Assembly: GCA_944392615.1 (NCBI GenBank) | Contig: CALXXF010000004.1 | Coordinates: 5,429 to 69,428, forward strand | Direction: 5' to 3' | DNA length: 64,000 bases | From: an uncultured Clostridia bacterium | Lineage (GTDB): Bacteria > Bacillota > Clostridia > Oscillospirales > CAG-272 | Shown here: positions 2,919-52,890 of the stretch, one piece after another | Position numbering within the stretch: the first letter of the stretch is position 1 | Layout of the letters: each line of letters opens with the position of its first letter | The notes under the pieces: model-generated | Database searches by the model: none | Seen by the model: only the letters and a program-made list of their open reading frames with translations | Told to the model about the DNA's origin: nothing | Translations under genes and position numbers: made by a program

Positions 2919-4220
2919 TTATATTTTTCTCTTGTCTATAACTCTTACTGCCTTGCCGATAGAACGGTCTATGGATCCGGGGGCCGCAAAGGTCACCTTT
3001 GCATTGACGCCGAGAAGGCTTTTGAGCGCCTCTGAGAGCTCTTTTTCCTTTACCGCAAACTTTGTAACAGTGTCCGAGAATACCTCCTGTGTCACTTCGA
3101 CTTTTACTTCGAGAGTGTCAAGGTTGTTTACTCTGTCAACAACTATCTGATAGTTAGGAGAATATCCCATGCGCAAAAGCACGGTTTCTATCTGCGAAGG
3201 GAATACATTTACACCGCGTATTATGAGCATATCGTCGCTTCTTCCGCGGGGCTTGCTCATCTTTACCAGTGTTCTTCCGCACGAACATTTTTTTCTGGAT
3301 ATAACGCCTATGTCCCTCGTGCGGTATCTGAGAAGCGGAAAAGCCTCCTTGGTTATGCAGGAAAAGACAATTTCTCCCTGTTCTCCTTCGGGAAGCACCT
3401 TTCCTGTATCAGGGTCTATGACTTCAATGATGAAATGGTCTTCATTTACATGCATTCCGCTCTGTTCACAGCATTCATACGAAACACCGGGTCCCATTAT
3501 CTCTGTAAGTCCGTAAATGTCGTGAGCCTTTATGTGGAGCTTTTCCTCTATGCGCTGCCTCATTTCCTCCGTCCAGGGCTCGGCTCCGAAAATTCCGCCG
3601 CGCAGGGCAATCTTTGACATATCGACATTTGCCTGCTCCATTGATTCAGCTATGTACATTGCGTATGAAGGCGTGCAGCACAGATAATCCGAACCGAAAT
3701 CCTGAAGAATGGTTATCTGCCTTGCTGTATTTCCGGACGATACCGGTATAGCTACGGCGCCTATCCGCTGTGCTCCGAGGTGAAGACCGAATCCACCGGT
3801 GAAAAGTCCGTACCCGAACGAAACGTGTATCTTGTCCTCTTTCGTCGCACCCGCAGCCACAAGCTGACGCGCGCAGCAATCAGCCCAGATGTCAAGGTCA
3901 TGCCTCGTATATCCTGCCACGATCTGTTTGCCTGTTGTGCCGCTGGAGGCGTGCAATTCCACGACCTGCTCCATCGGTACGGCGAACAGTCCGTAAGGAT
4001 ACGTGTCGCGCAAATCGCTCTTATATGTAAAGGGAAGCTTCCAAAGATCTTCTATACTGTTTATATCGCCCGGAGTAACACCCTTTTCATCCATGAGCTT
4101 TTTGTAGTAGGGTACGTTTTCATATACTCTTTTTACTGTCCTGACAAGGCGCTCATTCTGCCATGCCACAATCTGGTCACGCGACGCCGTTTCAATTTCT
4201 TTCTGCCAATATCTTTCCAT
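2919..4220 (-). CDS. paaK: Phenylacetate-CoA ligase family enzyme
   Basis: ANL-type motifs SSGTTGK and YGLTE, with a PaaK-like N-terminus (MERYWQKEIE...RVYENVPYYK). The ORF extends to a TTG at 4244. The ATG at 4220 is chosen by comparison with typical PaaK N-termini, and the ATG at 4235 is an alternative. Confidence 0.85.
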   Translation of the reverse strand: MERYWQKEIETASRDQIVAWQNERLVRTVKRVYENVPYYKKLMDEKGVTPGDINSIEDLWKLPFTYKSDLRDTYPYGLFAVPMEQVVELHASSGTTGKQIVAGYTRHDLDIWADCCARQLVAAGATKEDKIHVSFGYGLFTGGFGLHLGAQRIGAVAIPVSSGNTARQITILQDFGSDYLCCTPSYAMYIAESMEQANVDMSKIALRGGIFGAEPWTEEMRQRIEEKLHIKAHDIYGLTEIMGPGVSYECCEQSGMHVNEDHFIIEVIDPDTGKVLPEGEQGEIVFSCITKEAFPLLRYRTRDIGVISRKKCSCGRTLVKMSKPRGRSDDMLIIRGVNVFPSQIETVLLRMGYSPNYQIVVDRVNNLDTLEVKVEVTQEVFSDTVTKFAVKEKELSEALKSLLGVNAKVTFAAPGSIDRSIGKAVRVIDKRKI

Positions 4221-4406
4221 ATAAATTATGACCATTCCTTTCAATGCGTCAATTCAGCGTTCTGTGCGGTCCGCCACTGTCAGAGCGGCGACACGTATGG
4301 TCACCGGAGTCATAAGGCGGTATGTAAATTCAGTGCTTCGCTGTTTTGGATCTGTCAAAATTTCTGTCTGCTTGATTTTTCCGTGCAAAGACAGGCCCGG
4401 GGATAA

Positions 4407-4988
4407 TTATTCTTCGTAGCCGAAGCCAAGATCAAAAGCTTTTTCGTTTACCTCAATAAACTTTTTGTTGACGATGGCGGCAATTGCTTCTTTCCACTTT
4501 TCCCGGGAAATGCTGAGATATCTTGCCAGCCTTCCCATGAGGACAATATTTACCGCTTTTGCAGAGCCTGCCTGCTCCGCAAGTGACAGCGCGTCTATTG
4601 CATCGACATTTACATTCATTTCCCGGAGTTTTCCGAGAATTTCCGAGGGATATTCCATGGCGCCTGTTATCACCGGCATGGGGTCTATTTCCTGGGTGTT
4701 GACGATTATACGACCGTTTTCGGCAAGATACTTCGTATAGCGAGCGCCTTCGAGCTTTTCAAATGAGACAATGAAGTCTGCCTCTCCCATGTCTATTATG
4801 GGGGAATAAACCTTGCTTCCGTAACGCACATACGTCACTACAGAGCCGCCTCTCTGGCTCATTCCGTGTACTTCCGATACCTTGACATCGTATCCCTCGT
4901 CGGTCAGAAGCCGACCGAGCAGCTTGCTGGCGAGCAGACTCCCCTGTCCGCCCACACCTACTATCATTATATTTTTTGTCCCGTTCAT
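4407..4988 (-). CDS. iorB: Indolepyruvate:ferredoxin oxidoreductase subunit beta
   Basis: 193 aa with the N-terminal motif IVGVGGQGSLLAS. Its start overlaps the iorA stop (ATGA). Confidence 0.85.
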   Translation of the reverse strand: MNGTKNIMIVGVGGQGSLLASKLLGRLLTDEGYDVKVSEVHGMSQRGGSVVTYVRYGSKVYSPIIDMGEADFIVSFEKLEGARYTKYLAENGRIIVNTQEIDPMPVITGAMEYPSEILGKLREMNVNVDAIDALSLAEQAGSAKAVNIVLMGRLARYLSISREKWKEAIAAIVNKKFIEVNEKAFDLGFGYEE

Positions 4989-6733
4989 CTCATCGAACCT
5001 CCGGAATTATGTATTGCATCAAATTTACAAAGCTGGACACAAACACCACATCCGACACAGAGAGTGGGATCGACGTGTGCCTTGCCGTTCTTCATGCTTA
5101 TCGCAGGGCATCCGAGCTTCAGGCACATCTTGCATGAACGGCATTTATCGCCAGAAACAACGAAGGGATCGCCTGTCTTTACATATTTGAGGAGCACGCA
5201 CGGACGTCTGGATATTATGACAGACGGCTCGTCCTTGGCGAGCTCTTCCTTGAGCACGCGGTCGCATTCATCCAGATCATACGGGTCCACTACGCGGACA
5301 GAATTTATGCCGACAGCACGGCAGAGCGTTTCAAGGTCAATCTTTGTCGCCGGATCGCCTTTTATGTTGTATCCTGTCGTGGGATTCTGCTGGTGTCCGG
5401 TCATGCCGGTTATTGAGTTATCGAGTATCACTACGGTGGAGGCGGAATTGTTGTACGATATATTGATGAGTCCGGTCACTCCGGAATGAATGAACGTGGA
5501 GTCTCCTATTACGGCAACTGTTTTGCCGCTGCCTTCTCCGCTTTGTACTTTGTTAAAGCCATGGATTCCGGAAACAGACGCCCCCATGCAGAGCGTGGTG
5601 TCTACGGCGCACAGAGGCGCCTGCGCGCCCAGAGTGTAACATCCTATGTCGCCTATCACCGTTACCTTGTTCTTGGCAAGCGTGTAATACATCCCTCGGT
5701 GAGGGCAGCCGGCGCACATCACGGGAGGACGGACGGGGAGATTTTCGTCAAGGCTGTACCCGCCTTGGTGTTTTATTCCCAGAGACGCTGCTACAGACGA
5801 CTGTGACAGCTCGCCTATTTGTGAAAAGAGGCTTTTTCCTTCGACTTCTATGCCTATCGAACGGCAATGAGTCTCTATAACGCCGTCAAGCTCCTCGCAC
5901 ACTATTACGCGCTTCACCTTTTTTGCAAAATTTTTTATACGTTCGACGGGTAGCGGATTTACAAGACCTATTTTGAGTATAGAAGCGCTGTCGCCCAGAA
6001 CTTCCTTTATGTACTGATATGCAGTTCCGGATGTTATGACGCCGATTTGTGCTCCTTCATGAATTTCCTCTTTGTTAAAGTCGCTTGTCTCTGCCAACGC
6101 GCGCAAATCGTTCATTCTCTTCTCGACGAAAGGATGACGCTTCTTTGCGTACGCAGGCATCATAATGTATTTTTCCGGGTTCTTTGTGTATTTCTTGTCC
6201 GGGAGGGGAAGCGGCTCGGAAAATCCAACTATGCTTTGCGCATGGGCAATTCGCGTGCACATGCGCAGAAGAACGGGAGTGTCGTATTCTTCTGACAGGA
6301 GAAAGGCCCTTTTTGAAAATTCAAGCGCTTCTGATGAGTCGGCGGGCTCAAGCATCGGGACCTTCGCCGCTATGGCGTAGTGACGTGAGTCCTGCTCGTT
6401 CTGGGATGAGTGCATCGCAGGGTCATCGGCAACACATATTACCATTCCGGCATTGACGCCGGTATACGAGAGAGTAAAAAGCGGGTCGGCTGCCACGTTC
6501 AAACCGACGTGCTTCATTGCACAGGCAGCTCTCACTCCGCCAAGGCTTGCTCCGAACGCCGCCTCGCATGCGACCTTCTCGTTCGGCGCCCATTCGCAGT
6601 ATATCTCGTCGTTTTTGGCGGCAAATTCGGTTATCTCGGTTGATGGGGTCCCCGGATAGCTTGAAATAAAACGGCATCCGCCTTCGTAAAGACCGCGTGC
6701 TACCGCCTCATTTCCGATTAGCAGTTTCTTCAT
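4985..6733 (-). CDS. iorA: Indolepyruvate:ferredoxin oxidoreductase subunit alpha (TPP and 2x[4Fe-4S] domains)
   Basis: 582 aa. TPP-binding region GDIGCYTLG...GDSTFIHSG and a C-terminal CxxCxxC...CP ferredoxin motif (CRSCKMCLKLGCP, CVGCGVCVQLC). Confidence 0.9.
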   Translation of the reverse strand: MKKLLIGNEAVARGLYEGGCRFISSYPGTPSTEITEFAAKNDEIYCEWAPNEKVACEAAFGASLGGVRAACAMKHVGLNVAADPLFTLSYTGVNAGMVICVADDPAMHSSQNEQDSRHYAIAAKVPMLEPADSSEALEFSKRAFLLSEEYDTPVLLRMCTRIAHAQSIVGFSEPLPLPDKKYTKNPEKYIMMPAYAKKRHPFVEKRMNDLRALAETSDFNKEEIHEGAQIGVITSGTAYQYIKEVLGDSASILKIGLVNPLPVERIKNFAKKVKRVIVCEELDGVIETHCRSIGIEVEGKSLFSQIGELSQSSVAASLGIKHQGGYSLDENLPVRPPVMCAGCPHRGMYYTLAKNKVTVIGDIGCYTLGAQAPLCAVDTTLCMGASVSGIHGFNKVQSGEGSGKTVAVIGDSTFIHSGVTGLINISYNNSASTVVILDNSITGMTGHQQNPTTGYNIKGDPATKIDLETLCRAVGINSVRVVDPYDLDECDRVLKEELAKDEPSVIISRRPCVLLKYVKTGDPFVVSGDKCRSCKMCLKLGCPAISMKNGKAHVDPTLCVGCGVCVQLCKFDAIHNSGGSMR

Positions 6734-6954: not shown

Positions 6955-7806
6955 CTACTTCAGAACAGTGTATTGAGCCTTTCTGTAGGCGGTAGGCGTA
7001 CAGTTCTTGTATTTTTTAAATACCCTGTTAAAATACGAAACGGAGGAAAAGCCTACGTCATAGGAAACAGAAATTATGCTCTCATTTCCGGTGGCAAGCA
7101 ATTTTTCACTTTTACATACCCTGACGAAGTTCAGGTAATCTACAAAGCTCTGACCGCTTGCCCGTTTGAATATGCGGCAGAAATAAGAGGGGTTGAGATT
7201 CTGAACTGCCGACACTTCTTCAAGGGTTATGTCTCTGTAATAATTTTCTTCGATAAACGAAAGAGCAGGGCGTATCTTCTCCACATCTGCCGTTGTGGTC
7301 CCGTCACCGCTCGATATGGCACCCTGGCGGCAGAGCTCTGCTGTTATTGAAAACAGTGCCCCCTTTATGGCAAAATCCCAAGCTGTTTTTTTATACTTGT
7401 ACTCTTCGAGGACGTGCTCAATAAGGCTGAACAAGAACTTGTCCTTGAGTATTGCAAACGGAGTGACAGAGTTCTGTACAAACCTGTTGAAATACTTTCC
7501 TGCATTGTTGTCGTCGCTCAGGTAATATTCCTGACGGTACTGTACAAGTATGTATCTGCAAATATCACCGGGTTTATATGTGGCGTGCGGAATCCGTGAT
7601 GAAACAAATACTACATCGCCTGTGTCCGCGATATGCTTCTTTTCGTTTATAACGATTTCTATCGGTCCCTTTGTTATTGCGAGCAATTCTATTTCATCAT
7701 GGTAGTGAGGACCGCATATCAGCCCCGGATCTGGCTGAGAAAATACCTGCTCATCCAGAAGAATATTTGCCTTTGGTATGTTTGTTGCAATGAGTTGATT
7801 TTTCAT
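6955..7806 (-). CDS. AraC-family transcriptional regulator (cupin sensor + C-terminal HTH)
   Basis: The C-terminus (SYFCRIFKRASGQSFVDYLNFVRVCKSEKLL...VGFSSVSYFNRVFKK) is a canonical AraC HTH pair. The ATG at 7806 (MKNQLIA) is preferred over the longer ORF that runs to 7884. Confidence 0.8.
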   Translation of the reverse strand: MKNQLIATNIPKANILLDEQVFSQPDPGLICGPHYHDEIELLAITKGPIEIVINEKKHIADTGDVVFVSSRIPHATYKPGDICRYILVQYRQEYYLSDDNNAGKYFNRFVQNSVTPFAILKDKFLFSLIEHVLEEYKYKKTAWDFAIKGALFSITAELCRQGAISSGDGTTTADVEKIRPALSFIEENYYRDITLEEVSAVQNLNPSYFCRIFKRASGQSFVDYLNFVRVCKSEKLLATGNESIISVSYDVGFSSVSYFNRVFKKYKNCTPTAYRKAQYTVLK

Positions 7807-8013
7807 AATTGTATGACAGTGTGCCGTGGGTATGTATCCCAGGATGGTTGTACCTTTTAAAGGCCTGTTTTTAAAAAAAGTCAAAATAATTCAAATATTC
7901 GCTAAAATCGGAATAGAAAAGAGCGCAAGGAACATGTATAATTATTATAACATCGGGCGGTATGTTTGTCAATATCGCTCCAATAATCTGACGTCTTGCA
8001 GGGAGGAAAAAAT

Positions 8014-29611: not shown

Positions 29612-31954
29612 TTATTTTCCGCTGCTTCCGGCGTTGTCGTGATTTCTTATGTCAACTCTGCGTATCTTTCCGGATATCGTTTTCGGAAGTTCGCTCACAA
29701 ACTCTACTATCCTCGGATATTTGTAGGGAGCTGTGTGCGTTTTGACGTAGTTCTGTATTTCCTTGACAAGCTTGTCGTCGCACACGGTACCCTTGACAGG
29801 CACAATAGTCGCCTTTACGACCTGACCTCTTATGGGGTCGGGAGCGCCTGTTACAGCCACCTCAAGTACGTAAGGAAGCTCCATTATAACGCTCTCTATT
29901 TCGAAGGGGCCAATGCGGTATCCGGACGATTTTATAAGGTCGTCTGTTCTTCCTACGTACCAGTAATAGCCGTCCTCATCTTTCCATGCTGTATCGCCGG
30001 TGTGGAAAATGCCGTCATGCCACGTGTTGTAGGTCTGTTCCTTATGTATCTTGTCATCGGCATTATCGTCATAATAGCCCTTGAAGAGCCCAACAGGGAC
30101 CTTTTTGTCGGTTTTTATGACTATCTCGCCCACCTCGCCGACCTTACAGGAACGGTATTTTCCGTTTTCGTCTTCTATCATTACGTCGGCATCATAAAGC
30201 GGGGATGGCTTTCCCATGGAACCGACCTTCGGAACCATACCTGTCAGATTTCCGATTATCATCGTTGTCTCTGTCTGACCGAACGCCTCCATGAGACTGA
30301 TGCCGGTATGCTTGAGAAACTGGTAGAACACCTCTGGATTGAGAGCCTCTCCTGCTATTGTGGCATGCTTCAGAGATGAGAGATCATATTTTGCAAGGTT
30401 TTCCTTTATGAAGAAACGGTACATTGTGGGAGGAGCGCAGAATGTCGTTATATTGTATCTCTTGAAGAGAGGAAGTATATCGGCTGCGTCAAATCTGTCA
30501 AAGTCATAGGCGAATACAGCCGACTCACAGAGCCACTGTCCGTAGAGCTTGCCCCACATGGATTTTGCCCAGCCTGTATCTGATATGGTCAGATGGAGTC
30601 CGTCGGGCTCTACGTTGTGCCAGTATCTGGCGGTTATATAATGTCCAAGAGCGTACGTGCATGCATGTACCACTATCTTGGGATATCCGGATGTCCCGGA
30701 CGTGAAGAACATTACAAGAGTGTCGTTTCCGCCTACTGCCTCGCTCGTCTTCGGGAAGACGTCAGAGTAATTCATAAACTCGTCAAAATCGAGCCAGCCG
30801 TCCTTTTTCCCGTTAACAGATATTTTCGTCTTTACCGTTGGGCTTGCGGGAAGAGCTTTCTCAACCTCGTTTGTCGCCTCGCCGTCGGCAGTGCAGACTA
30901 TCGCGCTTACTCCGGCGGTATTGAAACGGTACTCGTAGTCTTTCTTAAGGAGCTGATTTGTCGCCGGAATGGCTATTGCTCCGAGCTTCTGCAGTCCGAG
31001 TATAGCAGGCCAGAACTGCCAGTGACGCTTCATTACCAGAAGCACGCGGTCAGATTTCTTTATTCCGATCGCCCTGAAGTAATTCGCCGCCCTGGACGAG
31101 AGGCGGGATATGTCGCTGAACGAAAAGCGTCTTTCGGTCTTATCCTTTGAAAGATGGAGCAAGGCGAGTTTGTCCGGAGTTTTTGCGGCTATTTCGTCAA
31201 TGATGTCAAAAGCAAAATTAAAGCGCTCGGTATTTTTGAAGTCTATCGAAAGCAGTCTGCCTTCGGAATCCTCTTCCGTCACTATATACTTGTCGCAGAC
31301 AAGCGGTACTTTTTCGGTCGCGGCAGTTATCTTTTTCTGCTCCGCAGCGGCAGGCTGAGAATATTCCAGAGCTCTTCCGTGCGGGTCTGTGACTATGGCT
31401 ATGAACTCACAGTCCTTTCCGCCGGTGGCTATCATGCCGTGCGGTTTGCTGCTGTTGTAGTATATCGCGTCCCCGGCATTGAGAATCTCCTCATGACCGT
31501 CGATATTCACCTTGAGAGAGCCTGATAGGATGTAGTCGAATTCTTCGCCTTCGTGCGATGCGGTGACGATGGGCCTTTGATTCTCCTCCTCGCTGTACCG
31601 CGCGCAAACCAGAAAAGGCTCGCTCATTCTTCCCTTGAAGAAAGAGGCAAGGTGATTGTACTTGAATCCCTTACGGCGTTCAAGCGGAAGTCCCTCGCCG
31701 CGCCTGACTACAGAAAATGTAGACAGTCTTGATTCGTCCCCCGTCATAAGGGATGTGATATCCACACCGAATACTTTGGCGCAGTTATGAAGGAAGGTGA
31801 AGGAAAAATCGGATTCTCCGCTTTCACATTTCACATACGTCTCTTCAGGTACGTCAATAATGGAGGCGACCTCTTTCGTTGATTTGCCGGATATCAGCCT
31901 TAGCTCTCTGAGTCGGGAGGCGATCAGTTGCAGTTGTGTCTGTTCGTTTTCCAT
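29612..31954 (-). CDS. Fusion protein: XRE-type HTH + cupin domain + complete AMP-forming acyl-CoA synthetase (medium-chain ACS-like)
   Basis: 780-aa uninterrupted ORF. The HTH is LRELRLISGKSTKEVASIIDVPEETYVKCESG and the cupin is HEGEEFDYILSGSLKVNIDGHEEILNAGDAIYYNSSKPHGM. The ANL motifs are FTSGTSGYPK, GDTAWKDEDGYYWYVGRTDDLIKSSGYRIGPFEIES and ISGKIRR. Confidence 0.85.
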   Translation of the reverse strand: MENEQTQLQLIASRLRELRLISGKSTKEVASIIDVPEETYVKCESGESDFSFTFLHNCAKVFGVDITSLMTGDESRLSTFSVVRRGEGLPLERRKGFKYNHLASFFKGRMSEPFLVCARYSEEENQRPIVTASHEGEEFDYILSGSLKVNIDGHEEILNAGDAIYYNSSKPHGMIATGGKDCEFIAIVTDPHGRALEYSQPAAAEQKKITAATEKVPLVCDKYIVTEEDSEGRLLSIDFKNTERFNFAFDIIDEIAAKTPDKLALLHLSKDKTERRFSFSDISRLSSRAANYFRAIGIKKSDRVLLVMKRHWQFWPAILGLQKLGAIAIPATNQLLKKDYEYRFNTAGVSAIVCTADGEATNEVEKALPASPTVKTKISVNGKKDGWLDFDEFMNYSDVFPKTSEAVGGNDTLVMFFTSGTSGYPKIVVHACTYALGHYITARYWHNVEPDGLHLTISDTGWAKSMWGKLYGQWLCESAVFAYDFDRFDAADILPLFKRYNITTFCAPPTMYRFFIKENLAKYDLSSLKHATIAGEALNPEVFYQFLKHTGISLMEAFGQTETTMIIGNLTGMVPKVGSMGKPSPLYDADVMIEDENGKYRSCKVGEVGEIVIKTDKKVPVGLFKGYYDDNADDKIHKEQTYNTWHDGIFHTGDTAWKDEDGYYWYVGRTDDLIKSSGYRIGPFEIESVIMELPYVLEVAVTGAPDPIRGQVVKATIVPVKGTVCDDKLVKEIQNYVKTHTAPYKYPRIVEFVSELPKTISGKIRRVDIRNHDNAGSSGK

Positions 31955-31967
31955 GATGAGTTGCCGT

Positions 31968-31991
31968 ATTTATTCTCTGCGAAGAATAAAT
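31968..31991. promoter_or_regulatory. 9-6-9 inverted repeat in the 5' leader of the HTH-cupin-ligase gene (operator or mRNA hairpin)
   Basis: ATTTATTCT-CTGCGA-AGAATAAAT, located 14-37 nt upstream of the ATG at 31954. Confidence 0.45.
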
Positions 31992-32065
31992 TTTTCCTTT
32001 CCTTCCCTGGTTTTCCGGGAAATATTCATATTTATTGCATCGTCCCAAAAGGTCCGATAAGCTGA

Positions 32066-32094
32066 ATTATATTAAAATTTTTGCGTTTTGTCAA
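32066..32094 (-). promoter_or_regulatory. Consensus sigma-A promoter of the HTH-cupin-ligase gene
   Basis: On the minus strand, TTGACA (32089-32094), a 17-bp spacer, then TATAAT (32066-32071). Confidence 0.7.
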
Positions 32095-32248
32095 TAGACG
32101 AAAGCAATAAATTTTCTGAACGCAATGTATGCTCATCTTGTCACTGAAAACATTTACGTCTATGCCACGTTGATTTTTTTATGGAAAAGATCTTTGGCAC
32201 GCAAAATTTGAAAAACGTCGTGCTCAATACATGGGGAGCGGACGTGTG

Positions 32249-32353
32249 CGCGCAGGCGTGCGAGCGGGGCGAGTGTGCATGCAGGCGGGGCGGATGAGTG
32301 TGCGAGCGGGGCGGATGAGTGTGCGAGCGGGGCGAGTGTGCATGCAGGCGGGA
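32249..32353. repeat. Five head-to-tail 21-bp GC-rich repeats, each ending in GGGG
   Basis: The units are CGCGCAGGCGTGCGAGCGGGG, CGAGTGTGCATGCAGGCGGGG, CGGATGAGTGTGCGAGCGGGG twice (identical), and CGAGTGTGCATGCAGGCGGGA. A TGCATGCA palindrome occurs at 32276-32283 and 32339-32346. Confidence 0.85.
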
Positions 32354-32367
32354 AAAGATATTTTTTA

Positions 32368-32396
32368 TTGTAGAGCGTTTGTTTTGTTAATATAAT
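32368..32396 (+). promoter_or_regulatory. Putative promoter of metF-metH
   Basis: TTGTAG (32368-32373), a 17-bp spacer, then TATAAT (32391-32396). An A/T-rich tract lies immediately upstream. Confidence 0.45.
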
Positions 32397-32480
32397 GTTC
32401 ATATAAGCGTGTTAAAATCATTAAAAATCAAGCTGCCGTCCAAAAGGACGTGCCTGCCTGTGGTGAAGGGATGTATAACA

Positions 32481-51013: not shown

Positions 51014-52546
51014 TCAGTCGAGATGTTCCTTTGCTGTAGTGGTCACTTTGCGTTCATATGAAGCAAAGGCGGCGTCTACCTCGTTTTTGTCCGGAGCTTT
51101 TGTAAAGGCGCTTACGACAGGCACTATCAAAAATCCCAGGAGCATTACGGCGGCGCCGCAATTTATAGGAGACTGCAGCCAGACGGGAAACATGTCCTTG
51201 AAAGCCATGTTCGCGAGCATGACAACCGTTGCAAATATGAAGCATACCCATACAGACACCTTGCTGGTACGCTTCCAGTAGAGTCCGTAGAAGAAGGGGG
51301 CAAGAAAAGAGCCTGCAAGGGCACCCCATGAAAGGCCCATCAGTTGAGCTATGTATTTTACCGCTTCGCTGGTGCTGGTGTGCTGAAATATGGCTATTGC
51401 GGCGGATATAGTGACGAAGATTACGAGAAGCACGCGCATTGTCAGCAGCTGACTTTTTTTGCTCATGTTTTTTACCACATGACCGTTGATAAGGTCAAGG
51501 GTGAGAGTGGAGCTTGAAGTGAGAACAAGAGATGACAGCGTGGACATTGAAGCCGAGAGAACGAGTATGACTACTATTCCTATGAGTATGTCGGGAAATT
51601 TTTCAAGCATTGTGGGAATTATGGCGTCGTATCCGGACGTATTTACATCCACGTCGTACAGTCTGCCGAATCCTCCCAGAAAGTAGCATCCGCCTGAGAC
51701 GATAAGAGCAAAAAATGTCGATATAATGGTGCCTTTTGTTATGGCATGTTCATCCTTTATGGCATAGAATTTGCCCACCATCTGTGGAAGTCCCCATGTT
51801 CCCAGCGATGTCAGTATTATGACGAAAAGCAGCCCGAGAGGATCAGGACCGAAGAAGGATGCAAACGCCCCCGGATTTGTTCCATCCTCGCTGATACCGG
51901 AGAGACTTGCTATAGCTTCTGTAAAGCCGCCGTTTCCGTTCAGAACGGCGGCAATGACAGCTACAATGCCGAACAGCATGATTATGCCCTGTATGAAATC
52001 ATTGACCGCGGTGGCCATGTAACCGCCTATTACGACATATATGCAGGTCAGCACCGACATTGCTACTATGCATATAGTGTAATCTATTCCGAACGCCATA
52101 CTGAACAGTCTTGAAAGTCCGTTGTAGAGGGATGCGGTATACGGAACAAGAAATACGAATACTATTACCGATGCGGCAATCTTAAGCCCTTTGCTGTCGA
52201 ATCTGTGCCCGAAAAACTGGGGCATCGTCGAGCTGTCGTAGTGCTGGGTCATAAGACGGGTGCGCCTTCCGAGCACCACCCAGGCGAGAAGCGAACCGAT
52301 GAGGGCATTCCCTATGCCTATCCATGTGGAGGCTATACCGAATTTCCAGCCGAATTGTCCGGCGTAGCCGATGAATATAACTGCGGAAAAGTAAGACGTG
52401 CCGTAGGCAAAGGCAGTGAGCCAGGGACCAACGGAACGACCGCCCAGGACAAAGCTGTTGACGTCGGAAGCATGCTTGCGGCAGAGTACGCCCACCGAAA
52501 TCATAATGCCGAAGAAAACAACCAGCATAATAACCTTTATCACCAT
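51014..52546 (-). CDS. Sodium:solute symporter family (SSF) transporter, predicted tyrosine/aromatic amino-acid uptake from its T-box
   Basis: 510 aa and polytopic, with SSF-like composition. The ATG at 52546 follows AGAGGTG. The longer track ORF runs into the leader terminator. Confidence 0.85.
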   Translation of the reverse strand: MVIKVIMLVVFFGIMISVGVLCRKHASDVNSFVLGGRSVGPWLTAFAYGTSYFSAVIFIGYAGQFGWKFGIASTWIGIGNALIGSLLAWVVLGRRTRLMTQHYDSSTMPQFFGHRFDSKGLKIAASVIVFVFLVPYTASLYNGLSRLFSMAFGIDYTICIVAMSVLTCIYVVIGGYMATAVNDFIQGIIMLFGIVAVIAAVLNGNGGFTEAIASLSGISEDGTNPGAFASFFGPDPLGLLFVIILTSLGTWGLPQMVGKFYAIKDEHAITKGTIISTFFALIVSGGCYFLGGFGRLYDVDVNTSGYDAIIPTMLEKFPDILIGIVVILVLSASMSTLSSLVLTSSSTLTLDLINGHVVKNMSKKSQLLTMRVLLVIFVTISAAIAIFQHTSTSEAVKYIAQLMGLSWGALAGSFLAPFFYGLYWKRTSKVSVWVCFIFATVVMLANMAFKDMFPVWLQSPINCGAAVMLLGFLIVPVVSAFTKAPDKNEVDAAFASYERKVTTTAKEHLD

Positions 52547-52592
52547 GTCTGTAACACCTCTTTTCTTTTTACAGAGGAGCGCAAGACAGGTG

Positions 52593-52890
52593 AAAAAAAC
52601 GTCCTCTGTTTTCAAAACAGAGGACGAAATAATATTCCGTGTTACCACCTCATTTTGCCATTGCCTCACGACTAATGGCCTCACCGAGTACGTTATCATA
52701 CTCTAACGCTTTAACGGGCGTACCCGTCTGCTCCTACACGGACGCCGACAGCTCACAGAATGTGCGTCACGTCTTTCAGAGTGCCGCTGGCGGAATGTAT
52801 TCGCCTGTTTCACACCTGCCGTCTTACACCAGCCGACGGCTCTCTGCAAGGTTGTGATGAGGCTACTTGTTTCCGTTCATCGCGTTTATG
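52593..52890 (-). promoter_or_regulatory. T-box leader with a UAC (Tyr) specifier
   Basis: On the minus strand: GCGAUGA K-turn, CGGAA helix, AGUA, AGAGAG bulge, a distal hairpin CCGUC...GACGG, and the specifier GAA-UAC-A abutting UUCCG (UAC at 52797-52799). The T-box sequence AATGAGGTGGTAACACGG is near 52641-52658. The terminator CGTCCTCTGTTTT/AAAACAGAGGACG plus a T7 run is at 52593-52626. Confidence 0.8.

Follow-up and report, generated by a model that had tools for sequence, protein, structure and literature searches.

A helix-turn-helix–cupin module fused to a predicted branched short-chain acyl-CoA synthetase in gut and rumen anaerobes

What does a protein do that begins like a transcription factor and continues as a complete acyl-CoA synthetase? 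The question is raised by an open reading frame (ORF) of 780 amino acids (aa) in a 64,000-nucleotide (nt) stretch of contig CALXXF010000004.1 (assembly GCA_944392615.1; uncultured Clostridia bacterium, Oscillospirales, CAG-272), and this whole stretch is referred to below as the window. The ORF lies on the minus strand (29612..31954), starts with ATG and has zero internal stops; it fuses a helix-turn-helix (HTH)–cupin module to an acyl-CoA synthetase of the MacsMa/MbcS type. A sequence-only reading had described it as a self-contained transcriptional module of unknown ligand. The explanation that we favour as a whole, if only modestly, is a branched-acid ligase with a protein-level HTH-cupin partner.

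A Pfam scan bore out the order HTH, cupin and complete ANL (adenylate-forming) enzyme in one unbroken frame. HTH_31 (residues 12-65, 25.1 bits) and HTH_3 (residues 15-67, 22.1 bits) fell slightly short of their cutoffs of 27 and 23 respectively, Cupin_2 matched residues 132-187 (53.3 bits), and both AMP-binding (residues 253-628, 200.1 bits) and AMP-binding_C (residues 685-763, 76.7 bits) were above their cutoffs of 29.9 and 24.5. On the minus strand, the XRE-like five-helix domain occupies residues 1-72 (31739..31954; helices 2-22, 26-32, 37-44, 52-62 and 66-71) and is followed by residues 80-190 (31385..31717), which comprise a subfamily-variable segment (RRKGFKY, 92-98) and the cupin barrel. 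Residues 191-240 (31235..31384) form a variable linker of low model confidence into the N-terminal strands of the ligase, with a predicted local distance difference test score (pLDDT) below 50 for residues 193-213, and this is the position of the gene boundary in the split versions described below. The ANL N-terminal (AMP-binding) domain spans residues 241-680 (29915..31234; P-loop TSGTSGYPK, 418-426), and the C-terminal domain, residues 681-780 plus the stop codon (29612..29914), holds the end of the motif GYRIGPFEIES and the catalytic A10 lysine in PKTISGK763IRR.

Homologues were sampled as the best 120 protein clusters out of at least 8000 candidates from 5.8 billion proteins, and all 120 (59-99% identity, 733-845 aa) carry Cupin_2, AMP-binding and AMP-binding_C together. 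Their names, if any, are ‘AMP-binding protein’, ‘acetyl-CoA synthetase’ or ‘cupin domain-containing protein’. One cluster (P0001), from an independent ENA assembly and with 38 member sequences, is 99% identical to the window protein and has the same architecture. A scan of one genome per species gave the orthologue loci L001-L080, the best 80 listed, and the full-length fusion is encoded in all 80 of these checked species-representative genomes. All are metagenome-assembled genomes (MAGs) from rumen, gut or faeces, labelled Oscillospiraceae, Acutalibacteraceae, Christensenellaceae, Ruminococcus or Clostridia. Because the same architecture recurs in every one of the best clusters and checked genomes (120/120 and 80/80), a sequencing frameshift or assembly artefact is ruled out as the origin of the fusion. 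The fusion is a widespread family of gut and rumen anaerobes without prior characterisation, and the split form is also common. The coupling is therefore unusual, as had been proposed, in being uncharacterised, but not in being rare: the family is very common, and split pairs are common in bacteria and in Methanomassiliicoccaceae archaea.

The ligase half carries the ANL core motifs TSGTSGYPK (418-426), GQTETT (559-564), HTGD (651-654), GRTDDLIKSSGYRIGPFEIES (668-688) and PKTISGKIRR (757-766), all in invariant or near-invariant columns of an alignment of 30 homologues; the three motifs picked out earlier (TSGTSGYPK, GYRIGPFEIES and SGKIRR) are among these. When residues 242-774 were compared with the PDB, the closest match was MacsMa of Methanosarcina acetivorans (3ETC, E 8e-183), followed by 4-hydroxybutyrate-CoA ligase and human ACSM2A. 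The top NCBIfam model was MbcS (NF047394; 416.7 bits over residues 244-774). G559 (FGQTETT) aligns where Acs has its gate Trp, a Gly being present instead as in MacsMa, and W445 (RYWHNV) aligns with the alternate pocket Trp259 of MacsMa, for which both residue roles have been described together with a preference for 2-methylbutyrate (PMC10455477). The two proteins also share a GW-x-K motif, although in MacsMa this reads GWGK where the window protein has Ala463; MacsMa furthermore lacks an HTH-cupin module, and its own physiological role is undefined. MbcS of Staphylococcus aureus selectively activates 2-methylbutyrate and isobutyrate (PMC10026030). From these likenesses, the ligase half is predicted with high confidence to be an active AMP-forming branched short-chain acyl-CoA synthetase of the MacsMa/MbcS type.

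The likely substrates are indicated by the regulation of the orthologues. The leaders were first noticed as terminator-like hairpins just upstream of the starts in the 80 loci. A strict T-box core pattern matched only two of the 80, and a relaxed pattern was set after the leaders had been read by eye; with this pattern, 68 of 79 orthologue loci had a T-box core in the 200 nt preceding the start, compared to a background of 0.005 per 200 nt elsewhere and 8 of 3950 shuffled windows. By Rfam, a T-box at gathering score immediately precedes the gene in L002, L019, L052, L056, L058 and L069. The specifier register was calibrated on the Rfam alignment of the T-box of valS in the window (GUC then G, model positions 91-94) and on four orthologue leaders. 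All 23 readable leaders of the ‘AHGM’ subfamily (named from window residues 94-97) have Val codons (GUA in 21, GUC in two), and all 43 readable leaders of the ‘EDGI’, ‘KxHG’ and ‘RRxGF’ subfamilies have AUC, for Ile. The T-box specifier thus follows the protein subfamily exactly across 66 readable leaders.

Clustering of neighbouring ORFs, with Pfam, showed a recurrent same-strand series downstream of the fusion gene in the orthologues. It begins, about 17 nt past the stop, with a CbiA/ParA-like ATPase (27 loci) and continues with the alpha, beta and gamma subunits of a 2-oxoacid:ferredoxin oxidoreductase (OFOR; 19, 15 and 14 loci respectively) and a class IV aminotransferase (14 loci). An Ile-type and a Val-type paralogue stand in tandem ahead of the ATPase-OFOR-aminotransferase series, each with its own matching T-box, in 14 loci or more. 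Reductive carboxylation of 2-methylbutyrate to Ile is cited as long established in rumen anaerobes (Robinson & Allison 1969, as referred to in PMC2812497). From the T-box specifiers and the operon partners, the family is therefore predicted to open a route from branched acids to Ile and Val, with high confidence for the family and moderate confidence for the window copy.

The same division is seen at one position of the ligase. Position 463, in the GW-x-K motif, is the sole strictly type-specific ligase residue between Ile-type and Val-type proteins: it is Gly in 43/43 Ile-T-box orthologues and in MacsMa, and Ala in 23/23 Val-T-box orthologues. It aligns with an acyl-pocket position of Acs, which we take to be the Val310/Ile312 residue of the Acs structure. 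Gly for the larger acid of the Ile type and Ala for the Val type would make a sensible specificity code. The window copy has Ala463 (codon GCA, 30566..30568, minus strand), compared to Gly in all 29 of its closest relatives, which suggests a pocket shifted toward the smaller isobutyrate. Because of the T-box specifiers, the operon partners and the correlation at position 463, the product is most likely 2-methylbutyryl-CoA and/or isobutyryl-CoA, made from acids that the cell takes up in the gut or rumen. The ligand first described as unknown can therefore be narrowed: Ile and Val T-boxes, OFOR partners of the VOR type with a branched-chain aminotransferase (BCAT), and kinship with MacsMa and MbcS all point to 2-methylbutyrate or isobutyrate, although this is an inferred substrate.

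Several further features were observed in the orthologue loci. The CbiA/ParA-like P-loop ATPase, of about 220-290 aa, lies between the ligase and OFOR genes (for example at L033:12140-12805) and the divergent OFOR operon beside a split pair in L086 also starts with it; the corresponding divergent operon in L085 starts with a gene that has no Pfam match. A box, AAATTTGAATATCAC, is near-invariant in 11 species of one clade (L016, L036, L038, L046, L051, L053, L054, L059, L066, L068 and L080), where it lies in the roughly 15 nt between the -10 element and the start of the T-box; weaker versions (AATTGAATA) occur elsewhere, and the box sits at the 5' end of the transcript, before T-box stem I. A third operon is found in the same neighbourhoods (L018:14648-19000; also L013, L029, L038, L043 on the minus strand, L059 and L072), headed by a T-box with the Leu specifier CUC read in L018 and L043 and a T-box core in the others. 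It encodes in order a LeuA/CimA-like protein (HMGL-like and LeuA_dimer), a fusion of about 840 aa and an Amidohydro_2 protein. The fusion, a further uncharacterised ligase with an N-terminal extension, joins a xylose-isomerase-like TIM barrel (AP_endonuc_2) to a full AMP-binding ligase and is possibly the leucine counterpart of the HTH-cupin ligase. Lastly, the T-box operon of L078 has two adjoining Gut-1 RNA matches on its upstream side, on opposite strands (L078:3608-3778; RF01706, 50 and 53 bits).

If the ligase half is an enzyme of branched-acid salvage, the question that remains is why it is joined to an HTH-cupin module. A search of 1.84 billion cluster representatives with this module returned 2839 relatives; of the best 150, 94 are 200 aa or shorter, mostly about 185 aa, and 35-50% identical. 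Four annotated contexts show a stand-alone HTH-cupin gene with a co-oriented AMP-binding ligase gene directly downstream, the hosts being a Methanomassiliicoccaceae archaeon, an Eggerthellaceae contig (whose protein is also listed under Raoultibacter massiliensis at NCBI), an Oscillospiraceae bacterium and Gallacutalibacter. Three of these gene pairs overlap and the fourth is separated by 40 nt; a ParA-like-ferredoxin-OFOR operon lies alongside in two. When these four were counted with 80 loci from a metagenome scan, split pairs, meaning a 190-205-aa HTH-cupin ORF with a same-strand MacsMa-like ligase within about 100 nt, were present in approximately 66 of 84 loci. About nine of the remaining loci are fused, five are without a ligase, and the others end at contig edges. 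A T-box lies upstream of the split HTH-cupin gene in at least 32 loci. The HTH-cupin module is a specific partner of this ligase clade, either fused to it or encoded just upstream, and the expectation that XRE-cupin regulators normally act alone therefore does not apply to this family.

The five exceptions to the pairing (L114, L118, L121, L122 and L125) are 191-aa HTH-cupin homologues, approximately 51-52% identical to the window module, with no MacsMa-like ligase within 4 kb downstream. In the Methanomassiliicoccaceae contig (L085, 4101-7213), from methanogenic archaea of gut and rumen, the split pair stands beside a divergent ferredoxin-OFOR operon, and its identity to the window protein is about 47% for the module and 54% for the ligase; the presence of the split unit in archaea suggests that the unit was transferred as a whole from one domain of life to another. 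At L117:3830-4000, and also in L113 and L119, the HTH-cupin gene is directly preceded by the 3' end of another gene, which in L117 ends ...PKTTSGKVMRVTIRKRD and on visual inspection resembles a ligase C-terminus. The module thus need not head its operon and can be internal to it, which would be odd for an autoregulator.

The module itself is conserved, with a mean pairwise identity of 52% compared to 70% for the ligase. Invariant residues include E44, D49, F52, F54, C58 and A59 in the HTH domain and H134, E138, G161, D162, S168 and H172 in the cupin. When the two-domain module was searched with Foldseek, HppE was the top match (1zz9, E 7.6e-15, 190 columns), level with 1y9q (E 5.2e-14), the HTH_3 protein of Vibrio cholerae. 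An hmmsearch with the family profile placed 1y9q first (E 3.9e-12) and HppE second (E 2.6e-11); this profile was built from stand-alone sequences only, as one that included fused sequences was swamped by ligase columns. Psf4, HEPD and MPnS are other close solved folds, and the small catalytic cupins KdgF and TM1459 are also among the closest. H134, E138 and H172 are invariant in sets of 58 and of 49 sequences and align with the iron-ligand positions (2-His-1-Glu) of HppE. In HppE-type enzymes the XRE-like alpha domain does not bind DNA and serves the cupin site. The window module resembles HppE, Psf4, HEPD and MPnS in joining an HTH-like alpha domain to a cupin with these positions conserved, but identity to HppE is only about 22%, oxidative chemistry is unlikely in strict anaerobes, and none of those enzymes is linked to a ligase.

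The HTH domain is also acidic. Its net charge is -4 in the window protein; across all 240 members examined it runs from -2 to -11, with a median of -6 for the 80 fused forms and -7 for the 160 stand-alone ones. Along the recognition helix the sequence varies and the median charge is -2, and the loop after helix 3, in which canonical XRE proteins carry basic residues, has an invariant Asp. The ‘textbook’ XRE HTH of the sequence-only reading is upheld as a predicted five-helix fold but overstated with regard to this acidic and variable stretch. DNA binding by the domain is doubtful on these features. On a relaxed list, which is confounded by phylogeny, 11 of the 13 residues that separate Val-type from Ile-type proteins lie in the N-terminal module and one lies in the ligase; only two positions are specificity-determining under strict criteria. 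C43 and R109 are ‘Val-like’ only in relation to the 43 Ile loci, as both occur in the window's own clade. The concentration of type-specific residues in the N-terminal module suggests that it recognises something type-specific.

The N-terminal module may therefore be a protein-level sensor or regulatory partner of the ligase, a proposal that we put forward tentatively and hold to be a little short of even. In the mechanism that we propose, family transcription would be on when uncharged tRNA-Ile or tRNA-Val binds the T-box leader. The C-terminal 540 residues would convert the branched acid (2-methylbutyrate or isobutyrate) to its acyl-CoA, a VOR-type OFOR would carboxylate this reductively to the 2-oxoacid, and a BCAT would give Ile or Val. 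The N-terminal module would be a cupin that binds a metal or a ligand, with the HTH-like domain as its cap or dimerisation element in the manner of HppE; it would sense a pathway metabolite and gate the ligase, in place of classical operator-binding repression. A parallel is offered by acetohydroxyacid synthase, in which the small ligand-sensing subunit IlvN is co-translated with the first enzyme of branched-chain amino-acid synthesis and is fused to it in some lineages. The HTH-cupin module would likewise be encoded beside or fused to the first enzyme of its pathway, although the fold differs (ACT in IlvN, HTH-cupin here).

The window copy differs from most orthologues in its control. It groups with the RRxGF (Ile-type) subgroup and lies between metF-metH and the T-box-controlled valS; this synteny is partly kept in relatives of 73-75% identity, and a valS neighbour is also present in L081. 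The T-box has been lost, and in its stead there are a consensus promoter and a short two-hairpin leader. The promoter is of the sigma-70 type (TTGACA-17-TATAAT, 32094..32066, minus strand) and matches the consensus at 12 of 12 positions, as had been noticed, and the leader is only about 105 nt long. Hairpin 1 (CCCGG-AAAA-CCAGGG, 32005..32019, minus strand) is followed by the purine tract GGGAAGGAAAGGAAAA. Hairpin 2 (AUUUAUUCU-UCGCAG-AGAAUAAAU, 31968..31991, minus strand) ends 13 nt before the AUG and corresponds in DNA form to a perfect 9-bp inverted repeat, ATTTATTCT-N6-AGAATAAAT (31968-31991), which had been taken for an operator palindrome. The gene would be transcribed from the consensus promoter, with the leader hairpins flanking the purine-rich, Shine-Dalgarno-like tract.

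Six relatives (L081-L083 and L169-L171) are also without a T-box and have this distinctive short leader in common (window 31952-32060, minus strand; L081:5910-6003; L082:4260-4360; L083:5900-6003; L169:2910-3003; L170:1250-1339; L171:550-635). A strong promoter TTGAC[A/T]-17-TA[T/A]AAT is at the equivalent place in L081-L083, L169 and L170, perfect in three of them, and was not found in L171. In the relatives the order is promoter, about 40 variable nt, a UUCCC-UUCG-GGGAA hairpin, AAAGAAAGGAGC, a hairpin with arms UUCUUCU/AGAAGAA, and the AUG 7-17 nt further on. As read by eye, both arms of hairpin 2 in the window (AUUUAUUCU/AGAAUAAAU) are altered together relative to UUCUUCU/AGAAGAA, and the spacing between the arms is 3, 4, 6, 8, 9, 10 or 16 nt across the seven sequences. 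RNAalifold on a MAFFT alignment of the seven leaders gave zero compensatory pairs, with hairpin 2 misaligned because its loop length varies; the argument for hairpin 2 therefore rests on direct inspection and on the single-sequence fold of the window leader (-24.7 kcal/mol, z = -2.56 vs shuffles). The inverted repeat is present, but because its arms co-vary and its loop ranges from 3 to 16 nt it is better read as an RNA stem-loop beside a Shine-Dalgarno-like tract than as an operator. No Rfam match at gathering score was obtained for the short leader, the window being the one member of its clade that was scanned. The pyrimidine arm of hairpin 2 might instead base-pair with the Shine-Dalgarno-like tract, and this hints at a translational switch. 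The conservation of the structured leader points to regulated rather than constitutive expression.

A number of observations weigh against a salvage ligase with a protein-level sensor. With regard to the window copy, no T-box was found by Rfam upstream of the gene (31955-32408) and no VOR-type OFOR or BCAT was found within the 64-kb window by tblastn, which detected only an IOR-like pair (4407-6733); its salvage role therefore rests on, and is inferred from, its orthologues. Those with the salvage context are at most 64% identical to the window protein. The MbcS score of 416.7 bits misses the equivalog cutoff of 850 bits, and the window protein is therefore MbcS-related and not an MbcS equivalog. 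As for the module, the HTH fold is retained and conserved, with R14 and R19 invariant, and its five helices are predicted confidently (pLDDT 91.7). The family profile also detects SinR, the 434 repressor and, weakly, PuuR. Acidity is no proof that an HTH fails to bind DNA, operator specificity could just as well account for the type-specific HTH residues, and the Val type may be one fast-evolving clade. The full-length model has a disordered linker and carries no docking information.

A first alternative, the idea of the sequence-only reading, is that the protein is a trigger enzyme whose HTH binds an operator (in its own leader, in its promoter or elsewhere) and whose cupin or ligase state (substrate or acyl-AMP) switches the binding, so that a single chain would activate the acid and also signal its availability to transcription. 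Precedents exist in BirA, NadR and PutA, each of which combines a DNA-binding domain and an active enzyme in one chain, with well-defined operators and a basic surface for DNA contact; the co-repressor of BirA is its adenylate intermediate. We regard this alternative as unlikely, though credible. The module has the XRE-cupin architecture of PuuR-type regulators and of the V. cholerae protein 1Y9Q, an XRE-like domain of five helices ahead of a cupin, and is weakly similar to PuuR and 1y9q along its whole length; its HTH fold is predicted with high confidence; and it is as persistent as the ligase across hundreds of species. In the archaea and Eggerthellaceae, which have no T-box, the HTH-cupin-ligase operon is divergent from the VOR operon, a classical regulator layout. 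Several Val/Ile type-specific residues are within the HTH, and the loss of the T-box in the window makes another form of control plausible. However, the PuuR equivalog model gives 32.4 bits against a cutoff of 211, and the window module differs from the PuuR type in its acidic HTH, its variable recognition helix and its constant tie to a ligase. The acidity extends to 240 of 240 members, and the recognition helix is both acidic and variable. A search for conserved palindromes in 11 aligned promoters of one clade and in 44 split loci lacking a T-box found none, and the 3-16 nt spacers in the counterparts of the window palindrome are incompatible with one dimer geometry. Most orthologues are already under T-box RNA, the HTH-cupin ORF itself being behind the T-box, and HppE-type enzymes show that the same two-domain fold need not bind DNA. 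BirA, NadR and PutA are moreover non-homologous, with no operator or basic surface like theirs found here and with sensing by the T-box in most orthologues. The proposal of a self-contained transcriptional module thus found no positive support, given the T-boxes, the acidic HTH and the lack of a conserved operator.

A broader form of this idea is that the HTH-cupin module reads the substrate or acyl-adenylate state of the ligase, binds either DNA or, in the window clade, the conserved purine/pyrimidine leader hairpins that took the place of the T-box, and so couples acid availability to expression. This we consider rather unlikely. If it were true it would be a second BirA-like case among adenylate-forming enzymes, by which, for example, de novo Ile/Val synthesis could be shut down when salvage is possible.

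It is also conceivable, but improbable in our estimation, that the window ligase feeds branched-chain fatty-acid primers in the manner of MbcS, or scavenges short-chain acids, and takes no part in amino-acid synthesis. The window copy is without a T-box or VOR/BCAT neighbours, its perfect sigma-70 promoter looks constitutive, six close relatives have the same T-box-less leader, and MbcS of S. aureus has this role (PMC10026030, PMC11167679). MbcS is the best-scoring named family, and its acids are those implied by the Ile and Val T-boxes, but it is a stand-alone protein that feeds fatty-acid primers and has no T-box/VOR/BCAT salvage operon. Against such a role, the window protein clusters with Ile-T-box orthologues (RRxGF), the VOR and BCAT genes could lie beyond the 64-kb window, the gene adjoins a T-box-controlled valS both here and in L081, and the structured leader suggests regulation.

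Least probable is a catalytic cupin, a metal-dependent isomerase, epimerase, lyase or hydrolase type acting on the acid, acyl-adenylate or acyl-CoA in a two-step channel: the invariant H134/E138/H172 aligns with the HppE iron ligands, the nearest solved folds are phosphonate-pathway enzymes with KdgF and TM1459, and the strict pairing with one enzyme clade and overlapping genes is as for enzyme subunits, but the salvage route from acid through acyl-CoA and 2-oxoacid to amino acid needs no added step, the module accompanies both the chiral (2-methylbutyrate) and the achiral (isobutyrate) type, and the strictly anaerobic hosts argue against oxygen- or peroxide-dependent chemistry. PuuR-type regulators presumably carry the same H/E/H positions, in which case the triad would be non-diagnostic.

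For the favoured reading, a branched-acid ligase with a sensory partner, the wider interest lies in nutrition and annotation. Fibre-degrading anaerobes of the rumen and gut have been known since the 1960s to need ‘isoacids’ (isobutyrate and 2-methylbutyrate). No assignment of the activating enzyme, or of its control, in Oscillospirales-type bacteria was found in the searchable literature. Full-text literature searches likewise returned no published account of the HTH-cupin/ligase fusion, of the HTH-cupin module as an obligatory partner, of Ile/Val T-box control with matching paralogues, or of the T-box-less leader of the window clade. The ligase itself is a new member of a known enzyme kind, but a very common ‘AMP-binding protein’ without a specific name would now be linked to the isoacid activation step, with a candidate specificity code (Ile or Val T-box matched by Gly or Ala at 463) and a dedicated HTH-cupin partner found from Clostridia to Methanomassiliicoccaceae archaea. 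As an allosteric sensor, the module would be a type of regulatory subunit new to ANL enzymes; were it to bind nucleic acid, the protein would be a new trigger enzyme. Either outcome touches isoacid supplementation in ruminant nutrition and the annotation of thousands of MAG proteins.

Some other features of the window were recorded. The repeat array that had been reported upstream of the gene is present as a 21-nt tandem repeat of 4.5 copies (32259..32352), in the interval from the promoter to metF. It occurs nowhere else in the window, is GC-rich within an otherwise AT-rich intergenic region, has no matching Rfam family, and yields a spurious 80-aa ORF (32160-32402, minus strand) with a repetitive APLAHSS translation; the analysis of the repeat within the window gave no evidence either way for a tie to the fusion gene or to metF. 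Elsewhere, an IorA-like protein (582 aa: POR_N, TPP_enzyme_C, Fer4) and an IorB-like protein (193 aa: POR) are encoded as a pair that adjoins a PaaK-like ligase (441 aa: AMP-binding, AMP-binding_C_2) at 2919-6733 on the minus strand. By its domains this set is a putative aromatic analogue of the logic acid to acyl-CoA to 2-oxoacid. An AraC-cupin regulator is encoded at 6955-7884. A second T-box (52617-52889, minus strand), with a UAC (Tyr) specifier, precedes a gene of the sodium:solute symporter family (51014-52600, minus strand) and not a tRNA synthetase gene.

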